IMG/VR virus record: IMGVR_UViG_3300028591_000113 | Coordinates: 1 to 46,086 of that record | Strand: one strand, 5' to 3' | DNA from: a virus | Lineage: Duplodnaviria; Heunggongvirae; Uroviricota; Caudoviricetes | Length of the DNA stretch: 46,086 bases | In this document: piece after piece, positions 1 to 30,734 of the stretch | Layout: every line of letters begins with the position of its first letter | Position numbering within the stretch: position 1 is the stretch's first letter | Program-made: the position numbers and the translations under genes | The notes under the pieces: generated by a model | The model's database searches: none | The model's input: the letters and a program-made list of their open reading frames with translations, nothing else | Told to the model about the DNA's origin: nothing

Positions 1-362
1 TTGGACCTTCAGGACCTTCTTCACCTTGAGGACCACTTGGACCTTGAGGACCTTCTGGACCTGTAAGACCCATAGGACCTGTAAGACCACTTACACCTCT
101 AGGACCACTTGGACCTTGAGGACCTTCTGGACCTGTAAGACCCATAGGACCTTGAGGACCTTCTGGACCTTCTTCACCTTCAGGACCTGTGAGACCACTT
201 ACACCTCTAGGACCACTAGGACCTTGAGGACCTTGAGGACCCGTAAGACCCGTTGGACCATCAGGACCAGTAGGGCCTGTTGGACCAGTAGGACCTGTTG
301 GACCAGTAGGACCTGTAGGACCAGCAGGACCAGTTGGACCGCTAGGGCCACTAGGACCAGCT
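1..362 (-). repeat. Gly-X-Y collagen repeat tract with internal duplications
   Basis: Period-9 GGT CCT/CCA NNN repeats on the minus strand; a block of about 48 nt recurs near 34 and 104. Confidence 0.95.
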
Positions 363-988
363 TCGCTACTATAAAAAGGTTGAACGTATATACGTGTAAA
401 ATCATGACTAAAACCGCAAATACTCCAATATTTGCGTGGTTGTCCTGTTGTATTACCAAAGAAATCTCTTCGAGTATTAATATCAGTGACATCTTCAATA
501 ATAATATCACCAATTTCTGGGATAATAATATTGCCACCAACTATCTCATCTCAATTAAAAGCAATACCATATTCATCCAAATCTGCTCAATAAGCATATT
601 GATTATCAGAACCATATGAAATATGATCTGAAGTGAAAGTGAATCCTGAATAAGTGATAACAATATTATCAATAAATTTATATCTTTCACTAGGAGAAAT
701 AGAAGAACTAGAATTATATGTATTAATATAATAAAAATTATCAGTACCGTTCCAACTTGAACTCATTGGATTATATCTATATGGATTATCTGGAACAGGA
801 TTTGGTGTACTTTCAGAAGAAGTATTCGCATTACCTTTTATAACTAAATTCGTTTTTGTATTAGAAAAAATTTGAAAACGATTCGCTGCTCCAATCGCTG
901 AATGAGAGGAAGGCGATGTATTTCTTCGTATTAAATTTATATATAAAAAACTACGAGCAGTAGTATAATATGTTTTTAATGCACCCAT
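1..988 (-). CDS. Collagen-like tail fibre protein, 3' end runs off the window (code 4)
   Basis: ATG at 988. The frame continues through two in-frame TGAs (587, ~543) into Gly-Pro-X repeats ([28 protein letters not shown]...) to the window edge. Confidence 0.85.
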
Positions 989-991
989 AAA

Positions 992-1984
992 CTACTCTCC
1001 TAAACGTTTTTTAAGGTCTTCAACCTCCTTAGTTAATTCTTGAACTGCACCTAATAAAACATAAATAAGTTTAGATTCACGAATCATCATAAAATCACCA
1101 TCTTTACCAGTGGCGTTTTTATTATCAACTAAAGAAAAGCCATCTATATCTATATCTTGTAATTCTTGCGCAATTAGACCAATAGTACGTTGTGTTTCAT
1201 CTGTTTTATAATTAAAACTGTAAATTTGTACTTTTTTAATAATATCTAAAAAACCACTATTAAGTTTGTTAAAGTTTTCTTTTGCGCGTTTATCAGAAGT
1301 AGCATTAAAATATAATGCTTGACAATAGTTATTAATTTTTACATAATCACCAACAAATAAACTATAACCAGTTTGCGGTGTATTATTTGTAGTGATTGTA
1401 GTTGGTCCTAAAATAAAACTTTTTGGATAATCACTCAAATAACCTAAATAAGCAATTACTTGTTTGGTGTCGCTTATTTTAGTACTAAATTGTATTCCGC
1501 TATGTCCATGAATTTCTAATCAATCATAGCTTTCATCTGAATAAATTCAAGAAACATATTGTAAATCATAATCGTGATCATCACTATCATAATATCGTTC
1601 AAAATAAATGCCATTAGAGTTATTCATGTAAATATCTCTATCATGATATGCTGTTCGATTTAAATAAATATCACTATTAAAATAATTTTCACATTCAAAA
1701 GTATTTTTTACCTTGGTAGCAACTAATGAACCGCAAACATAACCATTTAAATTGGCAACTAACGTATCAATTAATTTACCAGTTTCACTGTTATGTTGAA
1801 AAACACTTCCTTGGGAAGGGTTGCTAGTAAGTAAGGCTAATTTTGGCATATCTGCAGAAGTAATGTAACCACCATTCGGTGATAAACTTTTGCGCGACCA
1901 TTCAATAATAGAAAATACATTTTGTGGAGTTCCACCATTGTTTTCGCCATTAAAGCCTTTTAAATGTTCTCAATATAAAGCCAT
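992..1984 (-). CDS. Tail fibre/spike protein with C-terminal intramolecular chaperone (peptidase S74-like) domain, 330 aa (code 4)
   Basis: SD GAGG then ATG 1984; 3 in-frame TGA; ends TAG. The C-terminus SDKRAKENF...YSFNYK...IGLIAQEL...LIYVLLGAVQELTKEVEDLK matches the S74 autochaperone pattern. Confidence 0.85.
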
Positions 1985-2010
1985 AATATTACCTCACTAT
2001 ATTCATATAA

Positions 2011-2039
2011 ATTATGCCGTATAAAAAAGAGGAAGTCAA
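2011..2039 (-). promoter_or_regulatory. sigma70-type promoter TTGACT-N17-CATAAT overlapping the upstream terminator
   Basis: Minus-strand hexamers at 2039-2034 and 2016-2011 with a 17-nt spacer. Confidence 0.6.
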
Positions 2040-2054
2040 TTATTTAACTTCCTC
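2023..2054 (-). terminator. Rho-independent terminator
   Basis: GAGGAAGT/ACTTCCTC stem followed by a T-run on the minus strand, just after the large tail gene. Confidence 0.75.
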
Positions 2055-2064: not shown

Positions 2065-5000
2065 TTAACGAATAAGTTTAACAATACTTTGTAAGAGCTT
2101 ATCTTGATACTTAATTGAATTAACTGTTAATGAAATATCCGTATCTTGTCTTAAATTGTAACTAATATCACTAATAAAGAGATATTGATTTAATGCACGA
2201 TAAGTTTCATCAACAGCATCATAGTAGTCAGAAGTGTTAAGAAGAATACCATCACCAATATGTAACTCTTGTCCTTCGTAACCACTTAATGATGCGGCGT
2301 CAATAACTGTGATATTATAATTCTTTTCTGGAGAACTATAATCTTTAAAAGCTAATTGTGCCATCTTAAGTAGTTGCTCTGATGAGCGCGCATCTTTATT
2401 TTCGTAAGTGTTTTCTAAGAAAATGCCTGGATAACGCGTGTAAAGCATTTGTCATAGTCTTAATTTTTCATCAAGTTTTCTTTCATATGCCGGTGCTTCT
2501 ATGTTATGATATTTTGTTAATAATAAATATAATTGCATAGCATATAGTCCATCATAATACTTATAAATTTTTTGTTGGCTATCTAATGTGCGGATTAAGT
2601 TTTTATGCTCTGTTCCGCCACCCACTGGATAATAATAAGTACGAACTGCATATTTTTGAATGGTGAATTTACCTAAATTGGTTTTTGGTATATCTGTAAA
2701 AATATGTTGAATAGCATTAATAACTGCTGGATTATCTTTTAAGAAATCAACTTGACTAATTTCATATTCTTCTTTATCACATTTTTCATTAATGTTTGGG
2801 TGATAATTAAATAAGATACCATCTAATGTTGTTTTTCCCTCATATTTATATATTTCAACTTCAGGAACAAATAAGGAAGATAATAACACATTTCCATCTT
2901 GATTTACTTGTCATATTGAAGAGAATCAAGCATTATTATTTGTTGCCGCGTCAATTTGCCAGTATTCAGGAATAAACCATTCACAATAGTGACTGGCTGT
3001 ATAGGCTTGCATTCATTCAGTAGTTAATTGAGTTTCAATAATCATAGCTTTTTCTGCGATTAGAGGAAAATCTAAACGATTATGGAAATGGTATCAAAAA
3101 GTACCATTAGACATTTTGCCTATATCATAGTGATTAACACGATGACGTGTGATAATAAATTTATATCCAAATAAACTAATTTCTTGACTATCTGTATCCA
3201 CATTCGCATTAAAAGTAGTTGTAACTTCATCATTAAGTGTTTTATCATCAATTATTAATTTTTCTTCTTCATCGATGTGATATGTGCGCAAACAAATTTT
3301 AAACTTATCTGGAGTAATTGTTGCGCTACCATCTCTGAACTCTGCCGCATTTATTTCAGTATTGCTCATATAATAGTAGCGACGATCTGTTAAGCGCTTA
3401 TGAGTTTGAGGATCTTCAAATAATATTTGCGCTACAGTATAAGTGCGAGAGTCGATATCATTTTTAGCATACCAATGTAAATTAATATCTGTTCAATCAA
3501 AATCTGCGGTAATATCTTCAACTTTGGTTAATTGATTGTCTTTTTCAGCAACAAAGAATAAGTCATAAACTGTAGTTTGTCTTTCTGTGTGATAAATAGG
3601 AGAAAGTTCTATTTCACTACTAACTAATTGACGATCATTATTCAAATGATAAACACGACCATTTACGTCTTTTCAATTGATAGTAAAATTATTTGGATTA
3701 TGAGTAGTTAATGTCGCCGTAGTATTTGAAACTATTAGTTTTTCAAAAGGTTCCAAATGTAAAGCGTAATAAGTAATCGGATTTTCTAAAGGATATTGAG
3801 AATTTCCTGAAATTTGGAACTTAACATATGTAGAATCGGCAAAACCTACAGTATATCCAGAGGCTTCCATTTTATCACGATAATCTGCTCATGTTGGATT
3901 ATTATTAAGTTCTTCTTTAGAAAAGACACCAGAGAAATTAATTTCTTCTCTTAATTCTACTAATGGATAGAATTTAATTGCGCCAAAGCGTTCTGGAAAA
4001 TTACTACCAATAACAACAGTATCTTTTAAAAATTCAGCCGGAACTCAAATATATGTGTCTTTTGGGTTAATGCCTTCGTTTTGTCTGCAGAAACGCGCAT
4101 ATCTATTATTAATTCAATAATAATCATGCTTTGTATTGGCGTCGTTATGATAAATATCAGCTCTTTCTGCAGCCGTTAAGATTTTACCCTCATTATCGAA
4201 ATAAAATCCGTCATAAGTAGCATTGATATAATTATCCATTACATCATAATTTAAATTGCTATGAGCAAGTGAACCTTGACTATATGTAGCAACAATTTCT
4301 TGATAGTAATTAAAATAATGTTTGTAATTACTATGATTATCAAAATCTAGTCAATCATATCAATTATCATTTGCTCATCATGTTTCAGTAAGACCACGAA
4401 TAGTTAATTCACTATCTTGTTTTTGTACATAATTAACTCAATGAGAATCACCCTTTAAGTACTTGTTGATTTCACCTAATTTTTGAGTTTTATCTGGATC
4501 TGATGATTTACCGCGTGCTTCATTATAATCAAATTTACTTCAATTTTCTCCATCATAATGAGACATATTAAAGGTTGTATCGTCTTTTTTGCCTCAATGT
4601 GCATATTTATGCATACCACCAACAATCGCGCCGGTAATACCGCCAATAGTGCAAAGAGGACCTGCGCCTGGAATAATAGTATATGATAGTAAAGCAAATA
4701 AAACGCCTCCAGCTATTGCCCATCCTTTTGCTGTATAATCTTCATAATGAACAAAATATTTAGAATTCTTTAGAGAAGATAGTACATCATTATAAAAACG
4801 TGTGATAGAAAATGACGCAGATGTATCATTTAGATTATTGCTTATAATAGAAGTAGCATTTTGAGCATAAGATAAAAACGGAACCGCATAAAATTTTCTA
4901 TATAAGTTATCAAAAGCAACTTTTTCTTCTGCAGTTTGATCATGAGATTCTGTAATTTTATGATAAAAATCTCCATCACGTTCATAATAAGGATTGCCTT

Positions 5001-7872
5001 TTTCATCTAAAACACTGAAAGTATAATTTAATTGATTGGTTTCGGTATTTTGTTCTGTTGTATAAGTAATTAAATAATCATAGATATATAATTCATCAAT
5101 CGGTGACATTGATTTATATAGTTCTCAAGCGGTAGTGACACCAAATTGCTTTTCCATGTATTCTATCTTTAAATCAGGATTAACTTCTGTTAAAATTGAT
5201 ACCGCTGGTCAACTAATAAAATTTAATTTATCTGCTACAGTTTTATAATTTGTACGTACCCAATCAAAAGGCACTTTTAAATCTGTATCACGTACATAAT
5301 ATCCTGAATTATGATTATCGCGTAAGAAAAGTTTTACAATTTCTTGATAAGAAAGTCTAATATATTGCTCTTCGTTTCCAAAATTTGTAATTCTTTCTTT
5401 AGGTGGCACACCAAAAAATTCATTATATTTATTATAACTTAAATAATAATTATCCGCCGGATTGTAATGATGTGTATTATTAACTGGAGTTAATTTACCC
5501 TTTTCAATCATTGGAACAAAAAATTCTTTATAATTAAATTTATTGGGAAGTTTTTGTTCTATGTATTTTCCATTTATAAAAGTAAAAACAGGAGAAATAA
5601 CAAATGATTCACTATTATCGGTTCCTTCATGATGAATAATTGGAGAATTACTATTAAGTAAATCTCATTTAATTGCACCGTCAAAACTAATTAAATAATT
5701 ACTTGGAATGTGTGATTCTTCTTGATTTTGAATTGTATAATAAACATCATCTAAATATGAGGTTGCACCTGCAGAAAAGATGTTTTTATCTTCAAAATAT
5801 TTTCTAAAATTATACATATGTTGAAGAAATCTTTGTTCTGCAGAGAAAAATTTATTAAATCTATCGCTAATAATGTTATTAATACTAAGCAATCCATTTT
5901 CTTGATTATCTGCGTTATCAGATTCAAATAATTGATGATAAGTATTAATAAATTCACTTATGTTGCTACTTATCATACCACTTTTTGTATATGGTTCAAC
6001 TACACTTGCATAGAAGGTTGCACCAAGTGTATCAGTATCTGCTTCAAGTCTGCTTAAAATCTTTGTGCGTTCATGAAGAGCATAATAATAAGCATTTGCT
6101 AAACACATTAATTGACCATTAATTATGCGCAAACCATTTAATAATCAAGTCATTAAACCTTCGTATTCATATTTTGATAAAATGCCTTGACGGACGAAAT
6201 AATTAAAGTCCATAATTTTATTTTCAAGTCATGGACAAGATTCGGCAATGCGCGCGAATTCAAGTTCTTCATTTGTATAATCACGAGTAATAGTGAAAAA
6301 TAGAGTATTTAAGTTTAAACGTTTAGTGTTAGAGTCATTACTTGGTCTTTTTATTAATAAAAACCAATTATTATCATTAATTTCTCTGGTAATGATTTCA
6401 TTTTGTTTAAAAATTTGTATATCATTACCATTAATATAAGCAAAACAAATTGCATCATTGCTCTGTAAGCTATTAATGTTAATAAAATTCGTTGGGCCAG
6501 TGACAAAAGAAGTAATGTTATTTTGATCTTCTCAATAGAAACGAATTTTATTATAGTAACTTTGTCATTTTAATTGATTAATTTGTGCTTTTCAATATCT
6601 TTGATCATTAATTTCAATACCATCTGTATTTGGGTCTTCATTGTCATCAATTAAATAATATTCCTGACTATTGCTGTCTAATTTAAAACGAAAATAATCC
6701 AAAGATTTATCTGGTTGGTAAGTATATCCATAATTTTCACCTTTAACGACATCAGTATAAAAACCATTATAATACTTAGTGTCTTTTCAATCATTAGACA
6801 TAAAAAGCGCATTAAAGAAAGAAGGTAATGTAGGAAAAACACTAATTTCTTCATCATTTCATGTTGTAGATTTAATATTTAAAACAGTAGTAAGGGAATC
6901 CCCTGAAAAATTTAATCCAAAACTTTGAATATCTCTTAATGGAGAGTAAGTTAAACCACTAACTTCAGGATTTTTAGTAGGACTAAAAAAGAAATATTTA
7001 GCATATCTAATAGGATCTCCAGGACGAGCTGGATTAAAACTTTCTAAGCCTTCCACAACACTAAGTTGTAAACCTAAAGTTTCTGCAACTGCAATTAATG
7101 CCGCATTAGCGCTAACATTAGAAGCAGAAAAAGGAAAAGTTTCATAAAATTCTGCATATGTTTTAGTATTGTAGATAGGCTTAATAATTTTATCTACTTG
7201 ATTTGAATTACTGTTAATACCAAGTGGAACTGTGTTTTCAACTGTTTCACCTGGAGCATTAAATTCATGTAAAACACCATTAGTGTCTTGATAAAGACCT
7301 TTTCATAAAGGTAAATACTTATAAGTAATATAACAATCATGCGCGATTTTTTCAGCCCATTTATCTGCACTTAAAGCACCAATAAAATCTGCGCTAGTTT
7401 CGTCATTAATTAAGGTATAACCGTTATTTTGACGGTTTAATTGATAAGTAAAAGAGTCTTGGCAAGTGACTTGATAAACAATAGAAGTGTTGTTAAAATT
7501 ATATTGAATTTTATTTACAGTGAATAACTTACGATTTCTAAATTTATCTTGGAGTTCAATTTGAACACCAGTTCTTAAAATACGTGCAAAAGGATTTTCA
7601 ATTCATTCTTCATCAATACAGACTTTATCATCCATACTAAAAGTAAGTTCTTGTTGTCCGTTTTTGTGAGTTGCAAGTTTTTCATTATAAGTATATGCTA
7701 CCGTATGAGTTTTTAAAACATTTGTTTTATCTTTATTGATTTTAAATTCACTTTGTTGATCTTGATAATCTGTAATAACATGAAAAAGATAGGTTTCTGT
7801 TTGATTTGTTAAATTATCATTGAAAACCATATCATTATTAGGAACGATTAGACTAAGTTTAAATCTTGCCAT
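2065..7872 (-). CDS. Large tail tip/central tail protein, 1935 aa (code 4)
   Basis: All ORF-track fragments 7603-7872, 6859-7056, 5665-6132, 5209-5511, 4594-5109, 3673-3870, 3094-3369, 2452-2889 and 2065-2448 share one frame, separated by TGA (about 30 in total); ends TAA. Position downstream of TMP/Dit supports the product call. Confidence 0.8.
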
Positions 7873-7883: not shown

Positions 7884-8771
7884 TTAATAAACATTAATTT
7901 TTAAATTTGATAAGATACCATTTGGTATGCTTGTATATATAATATAACGACTTTGCGGATATTCTCCAACTCTCACTTGTTCAGTTTTTGTATAACTGTC
8001 ATCAAACACTTCTTCATAAGAATTATTATTTTCTAATAAAACTTCATGTCCTAAAAGATATTGTGCTGTTCATAATCCACCTGTAACATATTCTTGATGA
8101 ACTTCATCTAAGTTTAAAGTCGCAATACTAGGATCTGCGGGCGTAGAAGTAAAATTGGATAAATAAATAGGAGAAGCGGTAAATGGAAAAAGGCCATCTG
8201 GACTATTTTTTGGATAAAAACGAGCGCCTGGTAAGACTAAAGAGAACAAATAATTAAGACCATATAAATCTGTCGCATTTTCTGTAAACGCTCAAGTAAT
8301 TTCTGTAGTAACTTCATCATTGTTGATTGTATTAATAACAAAGTCTTTTAGTGTATAATAACTACCAGAATTGGCTAATGGAATAATTGAATACTTGGTA
8401 GTTTGATCGGTTTTATAACCATCATGACGTACTGCGAATCCCTGAGGTATAATTTTAGCGTGATTCCCATAGATATATAAGTTTTTTTGATAAACATTAT
8501 CAATGACCTGATGTGTTATCATCTTTGTTGGGTCAATTGAAGTATATATTTCAGGATGTTCTAAATCAGTTTTTAAAATACCTAAACTGATAAGTTGTTC
8601 AGGATTATAATAAGTACGACCTTTAGTATCAGGTAAATTTAAAATAATATAATTAGCATTAAAATTATCAATAAAACGTTTTAAAGCATCAATTTGGTGA
8701 TCTAATTGTAAACAATATTTTCGCAAAGTTTGAAAATGGTTAGAACCATGTCCAATATTGTAGAGGCGCAT
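7884..8771 (-). CDS. Putative tail/baseplate protein, 295 aa (code 4)
   Basis: ORF 8292-8771 reads through 2 TGA to TAA at 7884; tail-module position. Confidence 0.7.
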
Positions 8772-8772
8772 A

Positions 8773-9567
8773 TTATTTTACCTCACAAACTAACTCAACA
8801 GATGTATTATTATAACAATCAATAATACCGTCTGTAATAGAGAAGCTACTGTCTAAAATAACTTGTTCTTGCTTAGTTCCTTCTACAAAATAATATTTTA
8901 CTATAGGTTTGATTGTTCCAATTACTTTAACAGATATATCATGTCTTCCGGATAAAATAATCAAATTATTATTATATCCTTGAGGTTGTCCTTTTATTGT
9001 TAAGTTTGTTTTGACTTCAGTGTCTGGACTTTCTGTATATTTATAAATTAATTGATATGTAGATCCGCCTTGTGCTGTTGGTACCCAATTTTCTGCAGGC
9101 TGATATGTTCCTTGACTAGAACCATGAATTAAATGGATATTGCCTTGATAATCTTTAATAAATAAGTCACCACGATAAACAGTTTCTTCTTGTTGTAAGC
9201 TATTTAATCATTTAAAAGGAATACGTAAATTACTTACAACAGAGGAATTAGGAGGTAAATTAGCTAATTGACCTAATAATTCATCTCTATCGTCAATAGT
9301 TTCTCTGATTTGATAAGCATCTCAGAATGAAATAGTTTTACGAACAGCTTCTAATCTATAATTGAGATAATATAAAGCATTAATAATGCCAGTGGTATCT
9401 GACTTAAAATTATCAATACTAGTGTGCGCTATTATATCTAATAATGCCTCTCCATGCTCAAGAAGAGTGTCTGATTGACCACCATAAGCCGTAATTAATT
9501 GAGTTGCTATATTGTCCGGAGTAACTGTAATAGTATCTTTTTGTTTATATGATTGAAATTTTGCCAT
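8773..9567 (-). CDS. Putative tail/baseplate protein, 264 aa (code 4)
   Basis: SD GGAGG; joins 9322-9567 and 8773-8964 in frame through 2 TGA. Confidence 0.7.
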
Positions 9568-9579
9568 AATACTTACCTC

Positions 9580-10836
9580 CTAGATGACATTAGTACGATT
9601 ACGCATTGAACAATCAATTTTACCACTCATAGTAGTTATTTGAGTTTCTGAATCAGTAGTAAAAGCAAAATTTTTATAAGGGTCTATAATCTGAATAACA
9701 AATTTATATGTAGTATTCTCAACTTCTGGGTAGTCTAAACGTCCTGGTCAAAAGAAACGATTTACTTCCATAGATTCAATAAAACGCTTCCCCTCTGCAT
9801 TAATTGACAATAAACTTAAAATTTGTGCCTTATTACCGGTTTTTCAATAAATTAAACCTTGTTCTGAGTCATATGTAAAAGCAATGTAATTTGCACTTGT
9901 GTCTGTTAACGAATCTGGTATTTTTAAATTTTTAAAAGATAAATCAAATAAGACAAGAGGTTCGCCAATAATATTATCATCTGAGTCTTTAATATAGGCG
10001 ACTCCTTTTAGTTCATGTATATAAGTATCTTCAGTATTTTCAACTGGGTTATTATTAATTGGTACGAATTCGCTTAAATTAATAGTTACTGGAAAATCTA
10101 AATCAGAAGGTCATGCATCTTTTCAAGTTCAGTAGGATTTACCTGTTGCTTGATCGGTAATATATTGATTAACTATTTCCTTTCCTTGTTTATAGTTTGC
10201 TTCTCCAGCAGGATAAGTGATAGATGATCAGTCTTCAATAATATATGGAGAAATTTGTTTTGCGCATTGTTTTCCAATAACATCAAAAGTCAATGTGAGT
10301 TCGGTGTAATATCTATAACCATCTCCATCTCCGCCATTAAGTCGAGAATATTCTAAATTAGTAGAAGATGCAGAAGTTTGACTAACTTCTTTACCTAAAA
10401 CATATCGTGTAGAATCTTTTATCGTAGATAATTTACATTCATACCCATATTTAGGTTCAAAACTAAAGGACAACATATCTACTGAATAAGGATGTAATAA
10501 ATTCATTAAAACACGATAATCTTCAATAGAAATTCAATAAACACCTATTGTAAAAGTAATTTGTTGTGTATTAAAAGAAACACCACTCAAATTAGTATAA
10601 CCATCTTGATATTGTTGTTTTGTATAATTATTTGAGAAGGAAGCCCCATTATACATTTTGAGGCTTCCTTTCTTTTCATTAATAATAAAGGCTCCAAATT
10701 CAGCAAACATATTATTAATATTAGCCCAACTAAAAGTAGCAAAGTCATCAAGACTTGCAAGTTTATTGCGTTCTGCAATTGTACGTTCTGATGGACTTGT
10801 TAATTGGAACTCATAATTTTCTGGAATTCTTGCCAT
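9580..10836 (-). CDS. Distal tail (Dit-like) protein, 418 aa (code 4)
   Basis: SD GGAGG; reads through 7 TGA to TAG at 9580. Product inferred from position directly after the tape measure gene. Confidence 0.65.
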
Positions 10837-15880: not shown

Positions 15881-15899
15881 AAAAACTCCTTTCGTCGAA

Positions 15900-16655: not shown

Positions 16656-16685
16656 AAAAGAAAAGAGAAGATTATATCTTCTCTT
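16656..16685 (-). terminator. Rho-independent terminator after nrdG
   Basis: AAGAGAAGAT/ATCTTCTCTT stem followed by TTTCTTTT on the minus strand. Confidence 0.7.
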
Positions 16686-18997: not shown

Positions 18998-19209
18998 TAT
19001 TCTTGTTCCTTGAGCCATTTAACAGCTTCGGGCATAGTTAAAAAATTACCGTTTACTTCCAATATCGGTAAGGAATTGAAGCCTTTCGCCGCAAGGGCTT
19101 CAGTGTCATGTAATTCATTATATTCTATATTATGCTTGCCAAGCTCCATTTTGAGCATACGACATTTTGGACAAGTCGGTGAAGAATATAGTGTGATGCT
19201 ATCTTTCAT
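18997..19209 (-). CDS. Glutaredoxin/NrdH-like redoxin (70 aa)
   Basis: CPKC active site, SLPILEVNG; stop/start overlap (TAATG) with nrdD. Confidence 0.88.
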   Translation of the reverse strand: MKDSITLYSSPTCPKCRMLKMELGKHNIEYNELHDTEALAAKGFNSLPILEVNGNFLTMPEAVKWLKEQE

Positions 19210-19270: not shown

Positions 19271-19272
19271 AT

Positions 19273-19318: not shown

Positions 19319-20080
19319 TTATTCGCTAACGAGAGCTTTTGGGTCAATAATTGAATAGAAGACTCCATGAACAACAGCTTTGCCTGCAGCATTACCTTCT
19401 TTAGTAGAAACTAAAATATCTGTTGTTAATAAGTCACCATTCATATCAAAGACAGTTGCGTCGCCTTCAGCATCTTGTGTAAGATTAAAGATTGAATCTG
19501 GTAAGAATTGGTAAATAAGAATCTTAGCTTTGACTTGTTGGCCACTCTTTTGATCAATAAAGAATGTATCACCAATAAGAGTTTTTGGACCATTGAAGTC
19601 TTCAGTAACATGAAGTGCCCAAACACCTTTAGATGCATCTGTACTATAATCAGGACCAAAAGTACCTGATGCTTTAGATTCAGAAACTGTACCAGTAAGA
19701 GCATCTAATGCTGCTGCATTACCAAGTGCATCTTGCATTTCAAGTCTTGCAGATTTACCAAACTTAATTAATGGATTAGAATATTGACCACCTGTAACTG
19801 TTTTTGTTGGTCCTTCTTGAGACATATTAGAAATTTTTAATGTGTCTAAGTGACAAATTTTTGCTGTAGAATCTGCTGCAATAATTTGTTTGCCAATTTC
19901 ATCAGCTTGTAAACCGATCCAAGCAGCATGTTCTTGATCTGTTGTGTCAGTAAGATTGAACTTGCTTGTATCGTAAACGTCAACATTCATAACAGTGACA
20001 ACACCAAAACGTTCAATCATTCCTTGGAATGAAACGTCAGAGCCACCTAATCTAGAATACATTAAATTGGTTGAAGCCAT
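19319..20080 (-). CDS. Probable major tail (tube) protein, 253 aa
   Basis: Strong SD, biased codon usage typical of high expression, own terminator, position between head-tail genes and TMP. Confidence 0.7.
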   Translation of the reverse strand: MASTNLMYSRLGGSDVSFQGMIERFGVVTVMNVDVYDTSKFNLTDTTDQEHAAWIGLQADEIGKQIIAADSTAKICHLDTLKISNMSQEGPTKTVTGGQYSNPLIKFGKSARLEMQDALGNAAALDALTGTVSESKASGTFGPDYSTDASKGVWALHVTEDFNGPKTLIGDTFFIDQKSGQQVKAKILIYQFLPDSIFNLTQDAEGDATVFDMNGDLLTTDILVSTKEGNAAGKAVVHGVFYSIIDPKALVSE

Positions 20081-20097
20081 ATTATATGTTTACCTCA

Positions 20098-20826
20098 CTA
20101 TTTTATAAAGAAATCCAATTTCTTGCCTTTCTTTACATTGCCTGCCGCATATGCTTGCGCATTTACCTCATAAGACACGGCTCCAGCGGCATACTTTTGG
20201 AGCCATTGAATTTGAGCCATTGTTTGATTAAATAAATAATCAATAGTAATGGAAGGAAACGCATACGTAATTGCCAAGAACGCTTTCATTAATCCTTCCT
20301 TATCATGAGAGGCTTGAGATTTAATCTTTCTGATTTTCTCTTCTTGTTCTTGTTGAGCCAAATACAATTTACGAGCTTCTTCGGAGTCAAAGACGGGAGG
20401 TTGCACGACTTTTTCTCCACAAGATAATCTTAACAAATAGAGGATATGATCTCAAATATCAGTAGTAATAGTAATACTATTCACTTTTAACTGTTGATTT
20501 TGATAATCAAATTCAATATTTGGTATTCACTTTTCTAAATACTCTTTATATTGTTGACTTAGTTCAGAGTATTCTTGATATTGCGCCGCATCAAATACTA
20601 TTAGTATAATCATATCTAAAGAAGTTTCAATCTTCTTATAATAATATTTTTGAGCATCTGCTGGAGTTCGAGTTCATAAAAAGAAAATATTACTTCATTT
20701 AGTATCTTCGTATAAATCTCGAATAATTGGAACTTTTATTGAAAAAGTTTGTTTCTTATCTATTACAATTTTAATTTCTTTTTTAGCAAATAATTGTGTA
20801 ATTGAATAATTATTTTCAATAATCAT
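20098..20826 (-). CDS. Hypothetical structural-module protein, 242 aa (code 4)
   Basis: ATG overlaps the previous TAA; reads through 4 TGA into ORF 20098-20436. Confidence 0.7.
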
Positions 20827-21347
20827 TAGATTTCCACCTTTCTTGGGTTTTGATCATTGAAACCAATAATTACCGCATAAGCAAAACGGAATTCAGATAG
20901 CATTGTGTGTGCAAAGCTCTTTACTTCAATTTTACCCGCAGTAGATAATTTAAACCCATCAAGTGTAGTAATAACTTCATCTAATAATTCTAATAAACGA
21001 TTTTGATTATCATCTATAAGTAAATGTTGTTCATCAGTGCTCACATAAATTTTTAATGAAACATTTGTATTATCATCTTGTGCACCAAAATAACAATTAT
21101 CTAATAAAACAGTAAGAAATGTATTTTTTCATTGATCTTTAATACCACTTTCAACTGGTGCACAAACACAAATATAATGGTCTGCAATTAATTGATTGAG
21201 ACTTACTTTTGGTTTTGGTTGTTTAAGAGCATCAGAATTATCATTATAAAGTAATTTTACAATATTGTCATTTTGTGCTAAGGTTTGCGCGATTTCCATG
21301 ACACATTTCTTAATATTCTTTAATGTCTTCATATTAATCCGCTCCAT
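20826..21347 (-). CDS. Putative tail completion/neck protein, 173 aa (code 4)
   Basis: Joins 21129-21347 and 20826-21044 through one TGA. Confidence 0.65.
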
Positions 21348-22155
21348 AGTAGTAATAAGTTACTACTTCACCATTTTCTTTAACTGCTATTTCTGCCGCA
21401 TCGATACCAAATGGCAAACAGAATGTAACTTCAGTAGCAGTACGTTTGAGAATTTTAATGTTACCAGTAAACTTTAAGTAACCACCTTCAGTAGTAAGAG
21501 TAACTGGAATATTGTGACCAATTTCTTTCTTGTTATCTTCAATAACAATTTCTTCTGTAACAACTTCAGGATTTACACGTGTAACATCAACAATATAACT
21601 ATTAGCATCTTGTGTTTCGTCTTTAGAAACAGTAGAAGCTTGTAGTGAATAAACCGTAACACCAGGATTAGAAATTGAGTCGTACTCTTGGACAATCCAA
21701 GCACGACCATCTAAAACAATCTTATCTTGGTAATCTAAAAAATGCGCTGGAAGTGTAATTTGTGGTTCTTGAGTAGATTCAAGTGCAGTATCTTGTTCAT
21801 TACGAATACCAAGACGTGACTTAAAATAACCCCAAGTAATACCGAGGTCTACATTACACAATAGCGCGAAATATTTATGATAATCAGTATCTTTAATGCT
21901 GATAATTTCTTCGACAATAAGCCAATGTAGAGTATTTACTTCTCAAATGTCTCCTGGTTGGAGAGTGTCATTATAATGAGTGTAGATATAACCTTGATCT
22001 TTTTCTTGTTTTGAAACAACTGCGGCATGAAGTTCTATATCATCTTTATGAATGATAGCCGAATTGTAAGCATTAAAAATAAACTGCGCGTTGTAGTGTT
22101 CATTCGCAGAGTCACGACGACGTTGTTTATTTTTAAAGCGTTCAAAACTATTCAT
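21334..22155 (-). CDS. Putative head closure/head-tail joining protein, 273 aa (code 4)
   Basis: Joins 21943-22155 and 21334-21861 through one TGA (PGDI-W-EVNTLHWLIV); position. Confidence 0.65.
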
Positions 22156-22663
22156 CTTCGTTAATATCTCCTAGAGAAGCTTTCTTTTCTTCGTTAACAC
22201 GACTGTAACGATTTTCTAATTCTCTTGCATATGCGCGATATTCAGCCATGAGTTTCATGTTCTTTTCTGTTGCATTGGCGCGAGAATAGGATTTGATATT
22301 TTGGTCTGTATATAATTCTTCAAAATTATCGGCATTAGAAATCTGCATTTCAGCCCAATATACCTTCATCCACGCAATAATGATTTCAAGTTCAGCGTAA
22401 GATAAATCATTTTCAAAATAAGCATGAGGGATTGCATCTGGATAGTCTTCCAAATCAACTTCCTCTACTTCATTATTCTTGTTTCTTATTGCGTGGAATA
22501 CAGTATAGTCTGTAGGAATTTTAGGAAACTTAAATGCTGCTACGGCACGACGTGCAAGATTAAAACATTCTTCATCCATATCATCTTGTGAAATGAAGCC
22601 ATAATATTGACCACGAATTGTGGCTCTAAATGGAGGATATAACACTTCGTCCCAGTATTGCAT
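22148..22663 (-). CDS. Putative head-tail adaptor, 171 aa
   Basis: Clean ORF after the capsid cluster; product inferred from position. Confidence 0.6.
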   Translation of the reverse strand: MQYWDEVLYPPFRATIRGQYYGFISQDDMDEECFNLARRAVAAFKFPKIPTDYTVFHAIRNKNNEVEEVDLEDYPDAIPHAYFENDLSYAELEIIIAWMKVYWAEMQISNADNFEELYTDQNIKSYSRANATEKNMKLMAEYRAYARELENRYSRVNEEKKASLGDINEDE

Positions 22664-22679: not shown

Positions 22680-23186
22680 TTATTCTTCGTCTGCCATTTC
22701 TCCATCAACACCGTCAATGACGAGTTGAATTCCAAATCTTTTTTCAAGTACTTGAATGACGTTTTGTGAAAGTTCGCCGCATTTGTTAATGGCAACCGCT
22801 TTAACGCGTTCTTCACCATAGTTTTTAATGGCGTCTTCGATTTTTGTTCTGTTGCCCATCTTTAAAGTTGCGAAAATTAATCCATCGTCAGCTTTTGTAG
22901 CAGGCTTAAAATCAAACTTTTCATCAAACCAATAACCTGCTTCATAAGCGGCCTTTGCTAGACTGTCATTATCATCAAATGAAAAATAGCCCTTCTTATA
23001 CATACCATAAAGAACTGGATCAGCGATAACGCTTAAAGCCCAGGATAATGGTAATGGTTGTTGTGGGGTTCTTTTGGTTAAATGAATTCTTCTTGTAAGT
23101 TGAGGATTTTCAACGTTACGTAAAGTAAACAATACTTCATTCGGACTTGTTTTGATTAAAACGTATTGTTTCTTTTCTTCTGGCAT
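22680..23186 (-). CDS. Hypothetical protein (168 aa)
   Basis: Clean ORF with SD AAGGA. Confidence 0.7.
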   Translation of the reverse strand: MPEEKKQYVLIKTSPNEVLFTLRNVENPQLTRRIHLTKRTPQQPLPLSWALSVIADPVLYGMYKKGYFSFDDNDSLAKAAYEAGYWFDEKFDFKPATKADDGLIFATLKMGNRTKIEDAIKNYGEERVKAVAINKCGELSQNVIQVLEKRFGIQLVIDGVDGEMADEE

Positions 23187-23203
23187 AATATATTCCTTTC
23201 TAT

Positions 23204-23233
23204 AAAAAATGGGGGAGGGAGTTATCCCTCCCC
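23204..23233 (-). terminator. Rho-independent terminator after major capsid gene
   Basis: GGGGAGGGA/TCCCTCCCC stem followed by a T-run on the minus strand. Confidence 0.8.
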
Positions 23234-23259
23234 TTGGACAACTTTATAGTTGTTGTAAA

Positions 23260-24303
23260 CTAGTTACCGCTACCGCTGCCTTCGTCAGCGACTTTGATGA
23301 CAGCGTAGTTGTTAGCCATTGCTAAACCAACACCGATGATCTTGTGAGCTTCCCACTTTTCAGAACCAACAGCGTGTTCGTTCTTTTGGAGATATAATTC
23401 ACCTTTAAGAGCGACTTTGACTGGTTTGGCATCACTTGGGAGAATGAAGACGTATGATGGATCATAGAACCATTCTTTGTTGGAATTATCAACTAAGTAG
23501 TTTGGTAATTCAACGCATTTTGCGCCTTTATAAACTTGGATAAAGCCGTACTTTCTGATATCTTGAGAATCTTCAAGGTTTGGATAACCGCCTGTTGTAG
23601 CAGCTAATGGGTTGTAAAGGTTTTGTAATGAACTGTAGGAACCAAAGATTGATGGAACACCATATTGTTTAACATATGGCATAACTGCATCAATAGCAGC
23701 ACCTAAGTCCGCAGCTGGTGTAACGATTGCACCAGTTTCTTCACCGATTCTACCATAGCCAGCAACTGGAGTACCAGATGCTAAAGCATTGAATACTTCT
23801 TTATAAACGATTTCTTCGAAACCTTCTAAGACGTTGTTATAAAGTTCAGCTAATGTTTGTGTACCGAGGATGATTTCTTCTAATGTGACGTAAACAGCAA
23901 CTGTTTCAACATGTGTTTCTGGTGAGAAGAACTTGTTGGCTAATCTTGCTGCACGATAGATACCACCACGAGCACCTTTGCTAATTGTTAATTTAGCACG
24001 GTTTTTGCCGATTTTTTCGATGTTGAAGACGACTTCAGCATCACGAGCAAAAGTTTTAACTTCTGCAAATCCGCCTAAAACGCTTTGTAATTTCTTTGGC
24101 ATGATTTCATCAACAGATTCTTCGATTAAAGCGAATGCACGGTCTTCGACTGCACGAATTTCTCTTGGAGTTGGGTTTTCACCTAAGCCAAGTTCTTTCA
24201 TGATGCCTTTAACTGCTGCTTCATTAGTGTCTTCTGCTGAGAAATTTGCGGCTGGTTTGCCTTGAAGGGCAGCCATTAAACAAAGTTTTAATTCGTTTGT
24301 CAT
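23260..24303 (-). CDS. Major capsid protein, 347 aa
   Basis: Size, strong codon bias, position after protease/scaffold, own terminator; gene order resembles SPbeta/c-st-like phages. Confidence 0.8.
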   Translation of the reverse strand: MTNELKLCLMAALQGKPAANFSAEDTNEAAVKGIMKELGLGENPTPREIRAVEDRAFALIEESVDEIMPKKLQSVLGGFAEVKTFARDAEVVFNIEKIGKNRAKLTISKGARGGIYRAARLANKFFSPETHVETVAVYVTLEEIILGTQTLAELYNNVLEGFEEIVYKEVFNALASGTPVAGYGRIGEETGAIVTPAADLGAAIDAVMPYVKQYGVPSIFGSYSSLQNLYNPLAATTGGYPNLEDSQDIRKYGFIQVYKGAKCVELPNYLVDNSNKEWFYDPSYVFILPSDAKPVKVALKGELYLQKNEHAVGSEKWEAHKIIGVGLAMANNYAVIKVADEGSGSGN

Positions 24304-24324
24304 ATTCTTTTACCTCTTTCTCAA

Positions 24325-24816
24325 CTACTTACCAATGAATAAGTAGTGTTTGCCAGCGTCACCGTTTGGCATTGTTTCCATATCGAACCAATCATCTGCG
24401 GATTGGCCATCACCGCTCTTAACTTCAACGATCATACCTGCAGCAATAGCTTCTGCTAAACCTTTGTGGTCGGAAGCTTCACCGTCAGCCATGAATTCAT
24501 CGCCTGGGATTAAGAGGACGCAACGTGGATTTTCGTTTTTGAGTTCTGTTGCATAATATTCATCGCCATTACGAACAGTATTTAATGGGTCATTGTAAAC
24601 GATGAACATTGGTTTGCCTTCTTCCCAAGCAACGATACCGTCTTTGGAAATTGTGCAAATTGTGCCGTTTTCAATGAATTTGCCATCTTGAACACAGAGA
24701 TCTGCTTTTGCATCTTCTGCGACTTCCATTTGAGCAACAACGAAACCTGGTAATAAACCTTTAAGATTGTTAGCTTCAATATAATGGAAGGTTGGTAATA
24801 AATCATAAAAAGCCAT
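24325..24816 (-). CDS. Putative capsid decoration/minor head protein, 163 aa
   Basis: ORF with high-expression codon bias between scaffold and capsid genes. Confidence 0.6.
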   Translation of the reverse strand: MAFYDLLPTFHYIEANNLKGLLPGFVVAQMEVAEDAKADLCVQDGKFIENGTICTISKDGIVAWEEGKPMFIVYNDPLNTVRNGDEYYATELKNENPRCVLLIPGDEFMADGEASDHKGLAEAIAAGMIVEVKSGDGQSADDWFDMETMPNGDAGKHYLFIGK

Positions 24817-24832: not shown

Positions 24833-26290
24833 TTATCTACCTAATATTCTATGAATATAGGAATTTAACTTGTCTTCTGCGGTTGTATTTTTATGTGGTT
24901 CTGGAACCGCAAATGGAACCGGTGCAGCGCTGAAGTTTTCAGCTTCTGCATTTTCCTTATAAATTTTTAATAACTTGAGTTCGAGTTCTTCAAAAGTGAG
25001 AGTATCAAGTTCATTCATAAGGTTGTTTCTTACTTCATCAGTAAGTTCGTAACTGTTAATAAGAGTTACTTTTTTCTCTCTTTTAAGGGCTTCAAGTTCT
25101 GCTCTTTCACTATCAGTAAATGAGGCAGGACTTGTGTTTTCTTGTTGATTTTGTTCTTCACTTGCTGCACTCACTTTCGAATTAGTTACAGCGACTTCAG
25201 CACTTTGATTATTGGCTGCTGGAGTAGATTCTTGAGAATCATTTGCAAACTCGTCAGGAGTCTTGTCACTTTCAGTAGGCACTGTTGTAGTTGCCTCTGT
25301 TGTAGTAGTTGTTGTTTGATCGACTGTGAAGTCCCCATCTCCAGAGTCAGTAAACTCGTTACTACTTGTGAAATCTGTGCCTGTTTGCGCAGTGTCTTCT
25401 AAGTCTTCATAAACAACATGTGTTTCAACAATTTTGCCTAATGTAACTTCGCCATCATCACTCAAGGTGTAGTAGAGTTTCATTAATTTGACTGAACCAT
25501 CGTAATAAGAGTAGAAACGATAGATGCCACAATCATCATAGAAATCTACTGCATATGTGTAATATTCATTACCATATTCTCGATTGACTGCGTCAGAAAC
25601 TTTTGCGCAAATGTCGCCTCAGGAGAGCTTCAAAAATTCGGTTACATCCATGTTTTTGGTTTCTCCTAATTGATCAGTTTTTCCTTCACAATAGTCTTTG
25701 AGTATTTTCATCTTTTCTTCAAATTGTTCATCTAAAGCAAAGAATGCTGAACCAGTGAAGGCGGGTTCTTGATCTTTCCCTAAAACACTAACACCAATGA
25801 AATGTCCTGCAGTGAATTCAATGTTTTTCAAGTGTTTTCTTTCGTCATAGTTAATGTTGTACTTTACAGTACTTGGATCGAGTTCTAAGGATTGACTATG
25901 ACCTTCAATCTTCTTAGCAATTTCTCCAACCTTACCGGGACGTTCTGTGTAATAAACTGTATCACAGACTGCCCACATTTTGCCGTCTTCATCCTCTTCG
26001 AAGGTGATTTCCCCGCAAGGGTCGACAACACCATAAATGCTTTGTTCTGTGGCATGTCCCACAAAATCATCTTTCTTCTCATCATAATAACTTACGATAG
26101 GAGTATAAGGAAGTGATTTAATGAGTTCTTCACTGAACTCGTCAGAGAAGAAACGATGGTCAGCTGTTTCACCTTTATAGAAAACACGAAGTTTTCCGCG
26201 GGAGAAACGCTCATTTTCATTTCCGCTCTCTGTGACAAAGGATAAGGTTGCAGGTCAACGGAGATCAACTTTTGGTTTACGTTTGAACAT
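24833..26290 (-). CDS. Prohead protease/scaffold fusion, 485 aa (code 4)
   Basis: ATG 26290; 2 in-frame TGA join the fragments. N-terminal YTPIVSYY...DFVGH...SQSLEL...GVSVLG protease-like region and an acidic/coiled-coil C-terminal half. Confidence 0.75.
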
Positions 26291-26304: not shown

Positions 26305-27867
26305 TTACTCATTACCTTCATTGTCATCATTTGACTCGTCATTATTGCCTGATGGCTCAATTCCAGGTTTTTTGGACTCGTCATCAGATTTTTTAGAAGG
26401 GTCATCCTTACCATCTTCATCCGCTCTATCTTCTGCAGTTTGAGTGTAAGAAGTTTGCATAGGAGTGATTTGAGTAAGATCTAAGAACGATTCAAGATTG
26501 AAAGCATCTTGAATGTGTCTTTGTTTTATACCAGACGCGACGATAAAATCTAATTTACCAACACCAAGTGTGGCATTATCTTTATATCTTTTCACATCTT
26601 CGTCTTGATTATATGGCGAGATTGGTAAAATATCAATATTTACCTCATACCCCTTCGAATCCCATTTGAATTCTAGTCAGTTATTTAAACAAACGTTGAG
26701 GAAGTTAACATATTGATTTACGAATTTTCAAACAAATGCTTTGTCTCTGACTAATCCTAATTTGAGGGCTGTTACTGAGTCGGAAGTGAAGATGCTGGCA
26801 TTGAAACCCGCATTATTGAAGATTGCCTTATAGGCATTTGCTAATACTTGGGTAGCACTGTCATCATCATCAGAAATCTTATCAACATGAACATCACCAT
26901 AAGTTGTGATTAATCTTGCTTTATCGCCATTATCAACAATTTTCTTTAAAGATTTATGAAGGGCTTTAACTTCATCAACTTCGAAGATTAATTGATCTTC
27001 ATAGTGAGGAACTGTGTGAACAACTAAATATCTTAATAAGTTGTCACTTCTTTCCAATTCATTATCTTGGTATTTTTCGTAATCAAGAATACCACCTAAG
27101 ATGTAAAGTAATGTAGGAATACCCTTTTCATTCATGAGAACCGCAGAAGAGAATGCTGGATCAAGGATTTGCCAACGATAGTTTGTGGAATCTGCCTTGA
27201 ATTTATTATATTTCTTCTTCATTTCTGATGGTCAACTCTTTAAGAAGTCTTTAATTTTTTCTTCGGAATATCCTAAATCAGTGAAGTAGGAGAAGTCGAA
27301 TTCAATAATATAAGTGCCATATTGAGTTTGACCAATGGTTCTACAATATTTTTCAGGTAATAACAACATACTTAATGTCATACTATCTTCATCTAGGAAA
27401 GTAGTAAAGAATGTTGAACCTGTTGTAAAAAGTCTAATTAAAAGTTCTGGGAACTTTGTTTCAAGCGCCAAGCCGTCAACTAATTCTAACATCTGACTAT
27501 AAATAAGTTGAAAGTCAGCATCAGCAATTTGTTTTCTAGCTTTAGCTTTACTTTTTGTATATACTCTATGCGGAGTAACTTTATATTGCCAAGTAAACAT
27601 TTGGGCTAAATAGTTAATTACTGACGCATAAATTGGGTTTGTAATATATAATTGTTTTGATGTTTCAACTAAATTTTCCTTATTAGTAATTGAATCTAAT
27701 AAGAGTTTGCGGACTGCTGCCGCATTTTGAACTTCTACTGTAGAATAGACAGAGGTTTCGCCTTGTCTATTTTTACGTGAAACTTCATCGTTATAAAGAT
27801 TTTCAAAACCTTTTGCACGATTTACCTTAAAGTTGACATTAGTGTCTTTACTTTTTTCTTTAGGCAT
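26305..27867 (-). CDS. Portal protein, 520 aa (code 4)
   Basis: Three fragments join through 3 TGA; size and position after the terminase; acidic low-complexity tail. Confidence 0.8.
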
Positions 27868-27879
27868 ATCTAACCTCCG

Positions 27880-29691
27880 CTAATCAAAGAAGGATATTTG
27901 TCGTAATCCTTTGGACATTTTACGTCTCTTTTTATAATAGTCTAATTCAAAATGTTTGTTTACGCCATAAACCATATATTCCATCATGGAGAAAAAGTCC
28001 TTTTGAATACTGGTATCACGACGAACAATTTTTAATGTATTACTGAGTTGGTCTGATGTATTTACTATATCAAGGTTACGAAGTTCCATTTCTGCTTTAT
28101 CCATTGTTTGATAAACTTGTAAGAAATGTTTTTGTCTCTTGATACTCATTTGAGTGAATGATTTATTCTGACTGTAGAGTGAGAGCGCATCAGATAATTT
28201 TATAGGGAATGTAATGGCTCCTGTACTCATTCTTGAGAAGAAGAAGAAGTGAATTTCTTCACCAGTCTTACCACCAGATTTTATCTCATAACATATTGTC
28301 TTCTCTTTTGGATATTTTCGCAAATCTTTGCTTGCATTATCTGGAGGATTTATAATTCCTAGTCCTTCGTATAAAATTCCTTGCTTGTCTCGTGTTTCCT
28401 TATTAAGCCAGTCACGCATGGCCGCGCCAATACCGTTAGCGTCGTAAATAAGTAACTTGGCATTATAAGTAAGGACTAGTTTCTTAAACTCATTCGCAAT
28501 TTCCATATAGTCAGTAGAAGGAATGGTTAAGAGGTTAATGAATTTATAAGTGAAATAATGTTCTTTAGGAATGACTCGGGCAACACCGACTGCCGTTTCG
28601 GCAGAACCATCCTTAGCCATATCGGCGCATATTACATAAAATTCATTATTTTCTACTGCCATATCTGAACGCTTATCTTTGAGTTCAATAAGTTTAACCT
28701 GGCGTAACGCCGCAACGACTGATGAGCTGAAGGCCGCACCTTGAGGCGCATCACTCCAACGACTCAAGTATTCTCTAGCAAAAGATGCAGGAGAGAAAGA
28801 AGGAGAATTTCTAACTTCATCAATTTGTTTTTGAGCGGTTAAACCAAGTTTTAATGGTATCATATATGTTCCACCAAGAACAAAATACTTGTCTGGTTCT
28901 AGGATAGACATACATAAAATTTCTAATAGTTTTTGATAAGCAAAGGTTCCTTGATACCCCGCAGTAGTAATATATATTTGTTGAGATTGCGGTTCATTTG
29001 GATTAATTAAACCATTTGCCATTGTACGAGGTCTGTTAAGTAATGGAATATAAACTTCGTTAACTTTAGTGGCATCTTGTTCAATAATTTCTTCGAAGAT
29101 TAATGATTCTCTACGAAGACCTCTGACGTTACCTAAGTCAAGATGCGAACCATTTTTAAAGGCAAATTCTACATAGTCTGCGCCCATTTTATAGGCATCA
29201 AGTAATTTGCCTGCAATCTTACGTTTTTGCATCTCGTTCGCGAGGAGCGGGAATTTTACTCATAGGTCATCGACGACTTTTTGCTTTGCGATTTCAGCCG
29301 CTTGTTTATTTGTACCAGCGGTAATAGTTGTGTTATGGCGAGGAATAAACATACAGTGTAAATAACGATCTAGGTCTGCCAAGAAAGATTTAGAAGTACC
29401 ACGGCTAAAGAACATATATGAGTTATTGCCTCTTGCCATACAACGCATAATCATACGTTGGAAAAAGAACAAATGAAAGTGACTTGATTTCGGAGTAATC
29501 AAGTCTACGAAGTAGTCAGGATATGCAATAAAAAAGTTAAGAAAATTTCCAACTTCTTCAAAGTTTTCATTAATTCTTTTCTTTGTTAAGAAGCCTGTAT
29601 GGTCCTGCTCATCTTCATCCAGGAAATTAAAATAGTCTTCAATTTCTGAATCTATGGAATCATCAAAAATGTCGTCTGATATAAGTCCCAT
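27880..29691 (-). CDS. terL: Terminase large subunit, 603 aa (code 4)
   Basis: Walker A-like FSRGTSKS, Walker B LIFEE, ITTAG coupling motif, nuclease ICADMA. One TGA at 29260 (DDL-W-VKFPLLANEM). Confidence 0.9.
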
Positions 29692-30734
29692 TAGTTCTCC
29701 TTACGTTTAATTGTTGGCGCAACTTCTTCATCTTCGCCAAGATCTTCTTCATCTTCAGCAAAATTATGTTCTGTTGCGACAGTATCATTTTCTGTTTCAA
29801 TCTCGCCATCATCAGGCATAGCATCCATTAAATCAGATAGAGGAGTGGCCTGTGTCGCCGCATTGAAGTGTTCTTCTTCAGTTTGTTCTAATCGTTTTTT
29901 CGCGAGTTGTTCTAAGAGTGGTTGTAAACCTGTTGCTTCTAAAACCAATGATCTAAGGGTTTCTTGCATATCTTTGATACAACCATCTACTTCATCTCTA
30001 TCATAACCATCATAGAATTTGAATTTGAAACCTTGTTTTTCCATGTAATCGTAAAGTTCAGCGACTGTTGTAATGTCGTCTGTCTTTGTTTCTTGAATAA
30101 GGTTATCAAGGTCTGCTTGCTTAGCGAATGTATTCCAAGCGGACGAAAAGTCTTTAATTGCTTTTGCGTCTTTCGCTCTAACAGCTTCATCAATTTCAAT
30201 TTGAAGTTTACAAAGAGTTTTAATTGCTTCTTTTTGAAGTGGGTTAGTAATATTGTTTGCTTTAAGCGTACGTGTATAAATTGAGTCGAGTTTTATTAGC
30301 TCTTCGAAAGTGTATTGCTCGCCCCATTTTAGATGACCTCTTTCGATGTAGGACTCTTTCATTGGTGGCAAGCGATTTAAAATTTGCGCAAAAGAACGGC
30401 ACTTTTCCCATTCGCGGTTAGTGCGTTTTCATAAATCTTTAGTGCTTGATTCGTATGCTAAATTAGGGCGATTTTCTTGTTCGTCCAACATACCGATTGT
30501 ATATTCTCTAAAAATATCTTCGTTGTATTGTTCCATCAAGGAAATCCAAATTTTTGGCATCCATGGAAGATTATATGTTCTACAGAAAAATTCTGCATGT
30601 TCTAAATTGTTGTAATCTAAGTGACTATTGATGCAATCGAAACAAATTGTTTCGCCACTTAGCGGGTTATTACTGAACATAAGTTCTGCTTCTTTTCCGC
30701 ATTGTGGGCATCTTCCTTTTTTAAATGTTATCAT
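29691..30734 (-). CDS. Cys-rich protein, candidate terminase small subunit, 347 aa (code 4)
   Basis: CPQC and CFDC pairs; fragments join through one TGA; stop overlaps the terL start. Confidence 0.6.

Follow-up and report, generated by a model that had tools for sequence, protein, structure and literature searches.

The window analysed here comprises the first 46,086 bases of the 130,018-base tailed-phage (Caudoviricetes) record IMGVR_UViG_3300028591_000113 of IMG/VR, which is rated complete by CheckV. Positions 1-30734 hold a minus-strand late module of virion genes, in which the initial annotation had seen TGA as the only in-frame interruption of otherwise full-length genes, at about 70 places by manual count, and had proposed that the codon is read as tryptophan, either because the host uses genetic code 4 or because the phage is a stop-codon-recoded phage of a code-11 host. 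Here we report that TGA encodes tryptophan in the late genes, that it is kept out of the early and replication genes of the same genome, and that the phage encodes a tRNA with anticodon UCA that may decode it. Our best explanation as a whole, to which we assign a probability of about 0.87, is that a 130-kb SPbeta-like siphophage runs two coding regimes and that the window is its morphogenesis arm. Both ends of the record fall within one collagen-like Gly-Pro repeat gene (988-1 (−), continuing at 130013-128997), hence the assembly merely opened in the repeat and the record is a complete genome rather than a fragment. For comparison we used related phage DNA from two contigs, L007 and L010, and from three records, namely G001 (73 kb), G002 (30 kb) and the complete G003 (119.6 kb); the large terminases (TerL) of G001 and G003 are only 69-75% identical to that of the phage studied here.

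Results and Discussion

TGA is a sense codon in the late genes. Re-calling genes under different code tables, a check that the initial annotation had suggested, raises the coverage of the minus strand of 1-30734 from 65%, in 36 open reading frames (ORFs) of at least 100 amino acids under table 11, to 96%, in 23 ORFs with the longest at 1935 amino acids, when TGA is read as sense; as controls, TAG as sense covers 68% and TAA as sense 76%, values to be read with the caution that ORF coverage alone is a weak test of the code in AT-rich DNA and that, genome-wide, it is inflated by reading TAA as sense too. Stop counts per frame provide a cleaner test. Over the 24 minus-strand genes, frame 0 contains 69 TGA, 0 TAA and 0 TAG in 10,073 codons, and the two other frames contain 81-611 of each stop. 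The manual count was thus accurate, and TGA is indeed the only break in these genes. The 69 codons are distributed over 16 of the 24 genes, with 8 genes free of TGA, and are spread evenly along the genes with no bias toward the 5′ ends. Every credible gene in the whole window terminates at TAA or TAG, so that the earlier statement that no gene here ends in TGA holds as well. We also considered whether sense TGA is followed by a nucleotide that release factor 2 (RF2) avoids. Compared with TGG the following base looked significantly skewed (A 41%, T 16%; p = 5e-4), but compared with all A-ending codons the depletion of T was gone and the enrichment of A was weak in three genomes (p = 0.10, 0.02 and 0.11), and the idea was rejected.

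The codon alignments and the tryptophan content of the late proteins establish that TGA encodes Trp (table 4) and not Gly (table 25). Among 136 codon pairs aligned with relatives, TGA codons of the window stand opposite TGA in 39 and opposite TGG in 34 (73 of 136 together), most of the remainder being Phe (10), Leu, Tyr and Ile (8 each; 34 for the four residues), with Gly in only 2; conversely, TGG codons of the window face TGA in relatives 35 times. The contexts that had been quoted as fitting Trp are exact, namely QSIFWNIAYFD around W219 of NrdD, DDLWVKFP around W144 of TerL and GGKWDEL around W531 of the tape measure protein. W144 corresponds to an invariant Trp in five aligned terminases, and W219 is encoded by TGG in three relatives, G003 and one from the human gut among them, with TGG or TGA across close relatives. 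Comparison of W219 with solved structures was set aside, the distant T. maritima enzyme having Thr at this position and a single distant homologue being uninformative. Counting TGA, the late proteins contain 1.17% Trp, which is normal, versus 0.48% from TGG alone. As seen in the codon alignments the relatives are likewise recoded, and TGA recoding is therefore a property of the clade. The public gene call for one near relative already used TGA as Trp.

The late genes, all on the minus strand, begin at the left end of the window with the 5′ part of the collagen-like tail-fibre gene (2-988; 2 TGA), the rest of which lies at genome 128997-130013 where the Pfam Collagen match is found, and a tail-fibre gene with a Peptidase_S74 chaperone domain (992-1984; 3 TGA; Pfam/PHROGs). 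These are followed by the gene for a 1935-amino-acid tail protein of tip or baseplate type (2065-7872; 29 TGA and 7 TGG), for which no known family was matched and with which a pattern scan for relatives returned no match, probably because its conserved peptides hold TGA-encoded Trp. Three distal-tail genes of no known family (7884-10836; 295, 264 and 418 amino acids) contain 2, 2 and 7 TGA, the seven residing in 9580-10836, and the tape measure gene (PhageMin_Tail; 10848-15536) contains 8, that of W531 included. Two genes encoding 110 and 231 amino acids (15548-16595) are TGA-free and lack Trp altogether. Embedded in the late module at 16672-19018 are NrdG (16672-17145; 2 TGA) and NrdD (17135-19018; 1 TGA, W219), after which come five head-tail or virion genes (19319-22663; 0, 4, 1, 1 and 0 TGA) and a TGA-free trio (22680-24816) made up of a YonB-type putative major capsid gene (23260-24303) and two neighbours. 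The module is completed by the genes for a 485-amino-acid head-module protein (phrog_3313; 24833-26290; 2 TGA), the portal protein (26305-27867; 3 TGA, at W212, W380 and W397), TerL (27880-29691; 1 TGA, W144) and a phrog_3314 protein (29691-30734; 1 TGA), whose gene is the first of the late minus-strand unit. Pfam and PHROGs thus bear out the labels tape measure protein, NrdD, NrdG, portal and TerL that had been given from the sequence, whereas the label of protease is not confirmed, as no protease family was detected among the window proteins in these scans. Two observations stand apart. TerL of G003 matches as two pieces (residues ~1-236 and 247-586), which suggests that this gene is interrupted by an insertion, for example an intron or a homing element. 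Outside the window, a gene at genome 98020-98457 (−) encodes a 145-amino-acid protein of no known family with 7 TGA and 1 TGG (5.5% Trp), the highest TGA density of the genome, and adjoins a gene for a 648-amino-acid protein with 15 TGA.

The genome encodes 33 tRNAs, and one of these, at genome 88929-89025 (+), 43 kb outside the window and directly upstream of a TGA-rich glycosyltransferase array, has the anticodon UCA. This tRNA(UCA) scores 58.9 bits against the general tRNA model of Rfam and features a 7-bp acceptor stem, a 5-bp T stem, the pair A1-U72, discriminator G73 and an encoded CCA, the last three resembling the tRNA-Trp(CCA) of the phage itself. The label 'SeC' that ARAGORN attaches to it stems only from the UCA anticodon and the length of 97 nucleotides. 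A homologous 97-nucleotide tRNA(UCA) is present in the complete relative G003 (L026:1821-1917 (−)). In both genomes the tRNA has a long extra arm with a 4-bp stem whose sequences differ yet whose pairing is kept through compensating changes, and the 7-nucleotide loop of this arm reads GUCCAAA here and UUCCAAC in G003, with UCCAA being the core of the Trp CCA anticodon loop. The extra-arm loop thus mimics the anticodon loop of tRNA-Trp(CCA), a design that would make sense if tRNA(UCA) must be charged by a host tryptophanyl-tRNA synthetase (TrpRS) that recognises CCA. The gene for tRNA(UCA) exists, and its features argue for a Trp-like suppressor role.

How TGA is distributed over the genome bears on whether the host reads UGA as Trp as well. 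The remaining 15 kb of the window, on which the initial annotation had not remarked, are TGA-free, and this is the key discriminating fact: the window part of the early-gene block (30871-46086 (+)) lacks both credible in-frame TGA and TGA stops. This block, which extends over genome 30.8-70.6 kb on the plus strand, holds small genes, an RpoD-like sigma factor and 32 tRNAs, and a second block, at genome 107.6-124.3 kb, holds the replication genes (GyrB, GyrA, the annealing protein Sak, DnaB, primase, RecJ and PolIII alpha). Together the two blocks contain 155 TGG versus 7 TGA, all 7 in four doubtful small ORFs, and all other genes contain 202 TGA versus 171 TGG (Fisher p = 2e-32); no credible gene terminates at TGA in either block. 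The replication block has 0 TGA versus 51 TGG here and 0 TGA also in G001 and G003, and PolIII alpha has 25 TGG and 0 TGA in each of these three genomes. Genome-wide, 42% of the genes carry TGA. In the preprint of Borges et al. (bioRxiv 10.1101/2021.08.26.457843), the values reported are 26-71% for recoded phages of standard-code hosts and ~90% for code-25 phages of code-25 hosts; the value of 42% falls inside the former range and far from the latter. At the TerL divergence of these relatives (69-75%) synonymous sites are saturated, and since the genome is AT-rich, a UGA-reading host would let TGA spread everywhere. TGA is instead strictly excluded from the genes that are translated first, from which it follows that the naive host cell would not read TGA as Trp. 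The second of the two alternatives that the initial annotation had left side by side, a recoded phage of a standard-code (code-11) host, is therefore strongly favoured over a code-4 host, with the code of the host deduced from the partition of TGA here and in diverged relatives.

Two genes of the TGA-free part deserve mention. The RpoD/RpoS-like sigma-70 factor with regions 1.2, 2, 3 and 4 is encoded at 44580-45413 (+) of the window, and together with the code switch it may steer transcription towards later gene classes. Next to the divergent junction, the first gene on the plus strand (31145-32146 (+)) is TGA-free here and in G003, and its homologue has 4-7 in-frame TGA in L007, in G001 and in the human-gut relative (L033/L034), so that the coding regime of this gene flips between relatives.

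In the late module, the TGA-free state of the trio around the putative capsid gene (22680-24816) is not confined to this phage: 0 TGA are found among 52 Trp codons in 9-10 relatives, versus TGA making up 24-84% of the Trp codons in flanking late genes. Taken over the window, the remaining late genes have 69 TGA and 38 TGG, compared with 0 TGA and 11 TGG in the wider set of seven TGA-free structural genes (p = 3e-5). The homologues of the trio in the TAG-recoded phage phAss-1 are intact under code 11, and the genes that flank them are fragmented. The TGA-richest virion proteins are low-copy ones, that is, the tape measure protein, the 1935-amino-acid tail protein and the distal-tail proteins. 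This suggests that suppression is costly or leaky, so that abundant proteins avoid the recoded codon.

With respect to lineage, TerL is 30-35% identical to terminases of Geobacillus E3, SPbeta-type, Tsamsa-type and Lactococcus 949-type phages. The ESM Atlas look-alikes of the 347-amino-acid product of 23260-24303 (−) are YonB-type (SPbeta) capsid proteins. Proteins of Enterococcus, Staphylococcus, Mammaliicoccus and Lactococcus phages match this product at 25-30% identity, and one of the TAG-recoded human-gut phage phAss-1 (PMC10607447) at 29%. Its designation as putative capsid protein in the phage studied here is based on the YonB look-alikes, gene position and size; an AlphaFold model had a mean predicted local distance difference test score (pLDDT) of 45 and was too poor for a fold search. 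In having a YonB-type capsid protein and a YonF-type terminase, at 25-35% identity, the phage is like SPbeta, Geobacillus E3, Tsamsa, the Lactococcus 949-type phages and Enterococcus VRE9/H1, and the genomes of these large SPbeta-like Bacillota siphophages span 120-170 kb. These isolates are not known to recode any stop codon. All isolates that match TerL or the capsid protein are listed with walled Bacillota hosts, and a Shine-Dalgarno core is found upstream of 65% of the genes versus 7% by chance. The relatives of TerL and capsid protein, combined with the Shine-Dalgarno frequency, point to a host within the Bacillota. The uracil permease of the phage, evaluated as a recent host gene, was ruled out as such, since its hundreds of homologues at 70-97% identity are mostly on phage-sized contigs.

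We propose the following scheme. The early and replication genes, being TGA-free, would be translatable by an unmodified standard-code host. The late genes (virion, NrdDG, glycosyltransferase and holin), in which about 60% of Trp is spelled as TGA, would be read by the phage Trp-like tRNA with anticodon UCA (genome 88929-89025), presumably charged by host TrpRS and competing with host RF2. Late proteins would then be completed only after the suppressor tRNA has accumulated, so that TGA would gate late expression at the level of translation. Since TGA stops are absent from the whole genome, suppression should cause no read-through.

Several results weigh against this scheme. The phage genome encodes neither an RF1/RF2 domain nor a class-Ib synthetase (TrpRS), so that we infer, rather than read from phage genes, both the charging by host TrpRS and the competition with RF2. 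A promoter scan upstream of tRNA(UCA) gave no signal above chance. A scan of genome contigs and metagenome-assembled genomes (MAGs) yielded no direct link to a host. One relative contig (L033, L034) was binned, in one study, in MAGs of both Parabacteroides goldsteinii and Gemmiger formicilis; this double assignment is mis-binning, and the MAG membership of these contigs is uninformative on the host. The link to L. johnsonii is weak, as the 10-kb contig found in its MAGs, one of those with a homologue of the uracil permease, is itself phage-like. Published proteomic validation of recoding, as far as the literature cited here describes it, is confined to TAG read as Gln. Finally, although a holin (phrog_6918) is encoded at genome 126092-126442, whole-proteome Pfam and PHROGs scans of the 130-kb genome detected no domain of a peptidoglycan hydrolase (endolysin), nor did a six-frame search of this genome for Amidase_2, Amidase_3, GH25 and CHAP, nor one of the relatives for Amidase_2 and Amidase_3 only; the lack of a recognisable hydrolase domain does not prove lack of the activity.

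The last of these results bears on the possibility of a host that itself uses code 4. In Mycoplasma and Spiroplasma a tRNA-Trp with anticodon UCA decodes UGA as Trp throughout the genome, and these organisms have lost RF2. A phage that merely follows the code of such a mollicute would assign TGA the same meaning, mollicutes descend from Bacillota, in line with the lineage of the phage, and the failure to find a hydrolase domain in the genome (or either of two amidase families in the relatives) would fit a wall-less host. With no hydrolase found, a mollicute cannot be dismissed simply on the ground that the host must be walled, and for this reason we retain a code-4 host as an unlikely but not negligible explanation. 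The phage differs from code 4 in keeping TGA out of its early and replication genes and in supplying the decoding tRNA itself. In a code-4 host, TGA should be neutral or even advantageous throughout an AT-rich genome, yet in relatives that have diverged to ~70% protein identity all Trp codons of the early and replication genes remain TGG, and just 42% of the genes carry TGA. A host TrpRS that already accepts UCA would leave the UCCAA loop of the extra arm without an obvious reason, the phage has a holin, and every isolate that matches TerL or the capsid protein comes with a walled Bacillota host.

Translation with code 25, in which TGA is glycine, as in phages of Absconditabacteria and Gracilibacteria, opens the same frames as table 4, but Gly lies opposite TGA in 2 of 136 pairs versus 34 for TGG, with aromatic and hydrophobic residues making up the rest, tRNA(UCA) bears the Trp identity features A1-U72 and G73, and the capsid and terminase relatives are Bacillota phages, which together render this reading highly improbable. 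We attach equally little weight to the TGAs being genuine stops, in pseudogenes, through assembly errors or in truncated products, or selenocysteine codons, the ARAGORN 'SeC' label notwithstanding. The 69 TGA come with no TAA or TAG in 10,073 codons, conserved Trp columns show TGA in some relatives and TGG in others, and the same pattern recurs in independent contigs from several metagenomes; the 7-bp acceptor stem, 5-bp T stem, G73 and fit to the general tRNA model do not correspond to a selenocysteine tRNA architecture, and TGA pairs with Trp and never preferentially with Cys. The codon alignments effectively refute stops and selenocysteine alike.

A recoded phage of a standard-code host has close parallels in the literature. 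Agate phages are TGA-recoded, have genomes of ~127 kb and occur in the guts of cattle and other animals (Borges et al., bioRxiv 10.1101/2021.08.26.457843; Nat Microbiol 2022); as described in the preprint, their structural and lysis modules are recoded, their replication machinery uses the standard code, and they have TGA suppressor tRNAs and almost no TGA stops. The phage studied here, with a genome in the same range (~127-130 kb), TGA read as Trp, recoded structural and lysis modules, standard-code replication genes, a suppressor tRNA and no TGA stops, fits every descriptive feature given there, a likeness by description and not by phylogeny. Its TGA-free capsid trio and the lack of a recognisable endolysin are not mentioned for Agate in the account followed here. 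Jade phages have a code-change operon and read TGA as Trp via a suppressor tRNA beside late genes (bioRxiv 10.1101/2021.08.26.457843). The phage studied here shares with them the reading of TGA as Trp and, probably, the use of its own suppressor tRNA for it, encoded beside late genes, but Jade, according to the same source, encodes RF1 and a tryptophanyl-tRNA synthetase and this phage neither. The human-gut phage phAss-1, of the proposed Phassvirus, has a genome of ~136 kb, 36 tRNAs, NrdG, PolIII alpha and a holin (PMC10607447), and is a distant relative, as judged from the 29% identity of the capsid proteins. The two phages have recoded late genes, phage suppressor tRNAs and the absence of a dedicated synthetase in common and differ in that phAss-1 recodes TAG to Gln (code 15) and this phage TGA to Trp. 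No recoding was found in the related phages Enterococcus EF1 and Enterocloster PMBT10 (PMC10607447).

Conclusion

The strategy of TGA-recoded late genes combined with standard-code early and replication genes is real but already described, and what the present phage adds to the published picture is little beyond a capsid trio that stays TGA-free in relatives and the lack of a recognisable endolysin. For annotation the consequence is that the late genes need table 4, as table 11 breaks the 30-kb module into 36 fragments and loses the largest proteins. The early and replication genes, TGA-free and conserved as such in relatives, constitute a within-genome control that argues for a standard-code host. 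The capsid trio in turn raises the tentative idea, to us rather doubtful at present, that recoded TGA may act as a dose limiter besides an on/off timer. If this were true, suppression would compete poorly with RF2, and TGA density would be selected to match virion stoichiometry or to avoid truncated capsid protein that poisons assembly.

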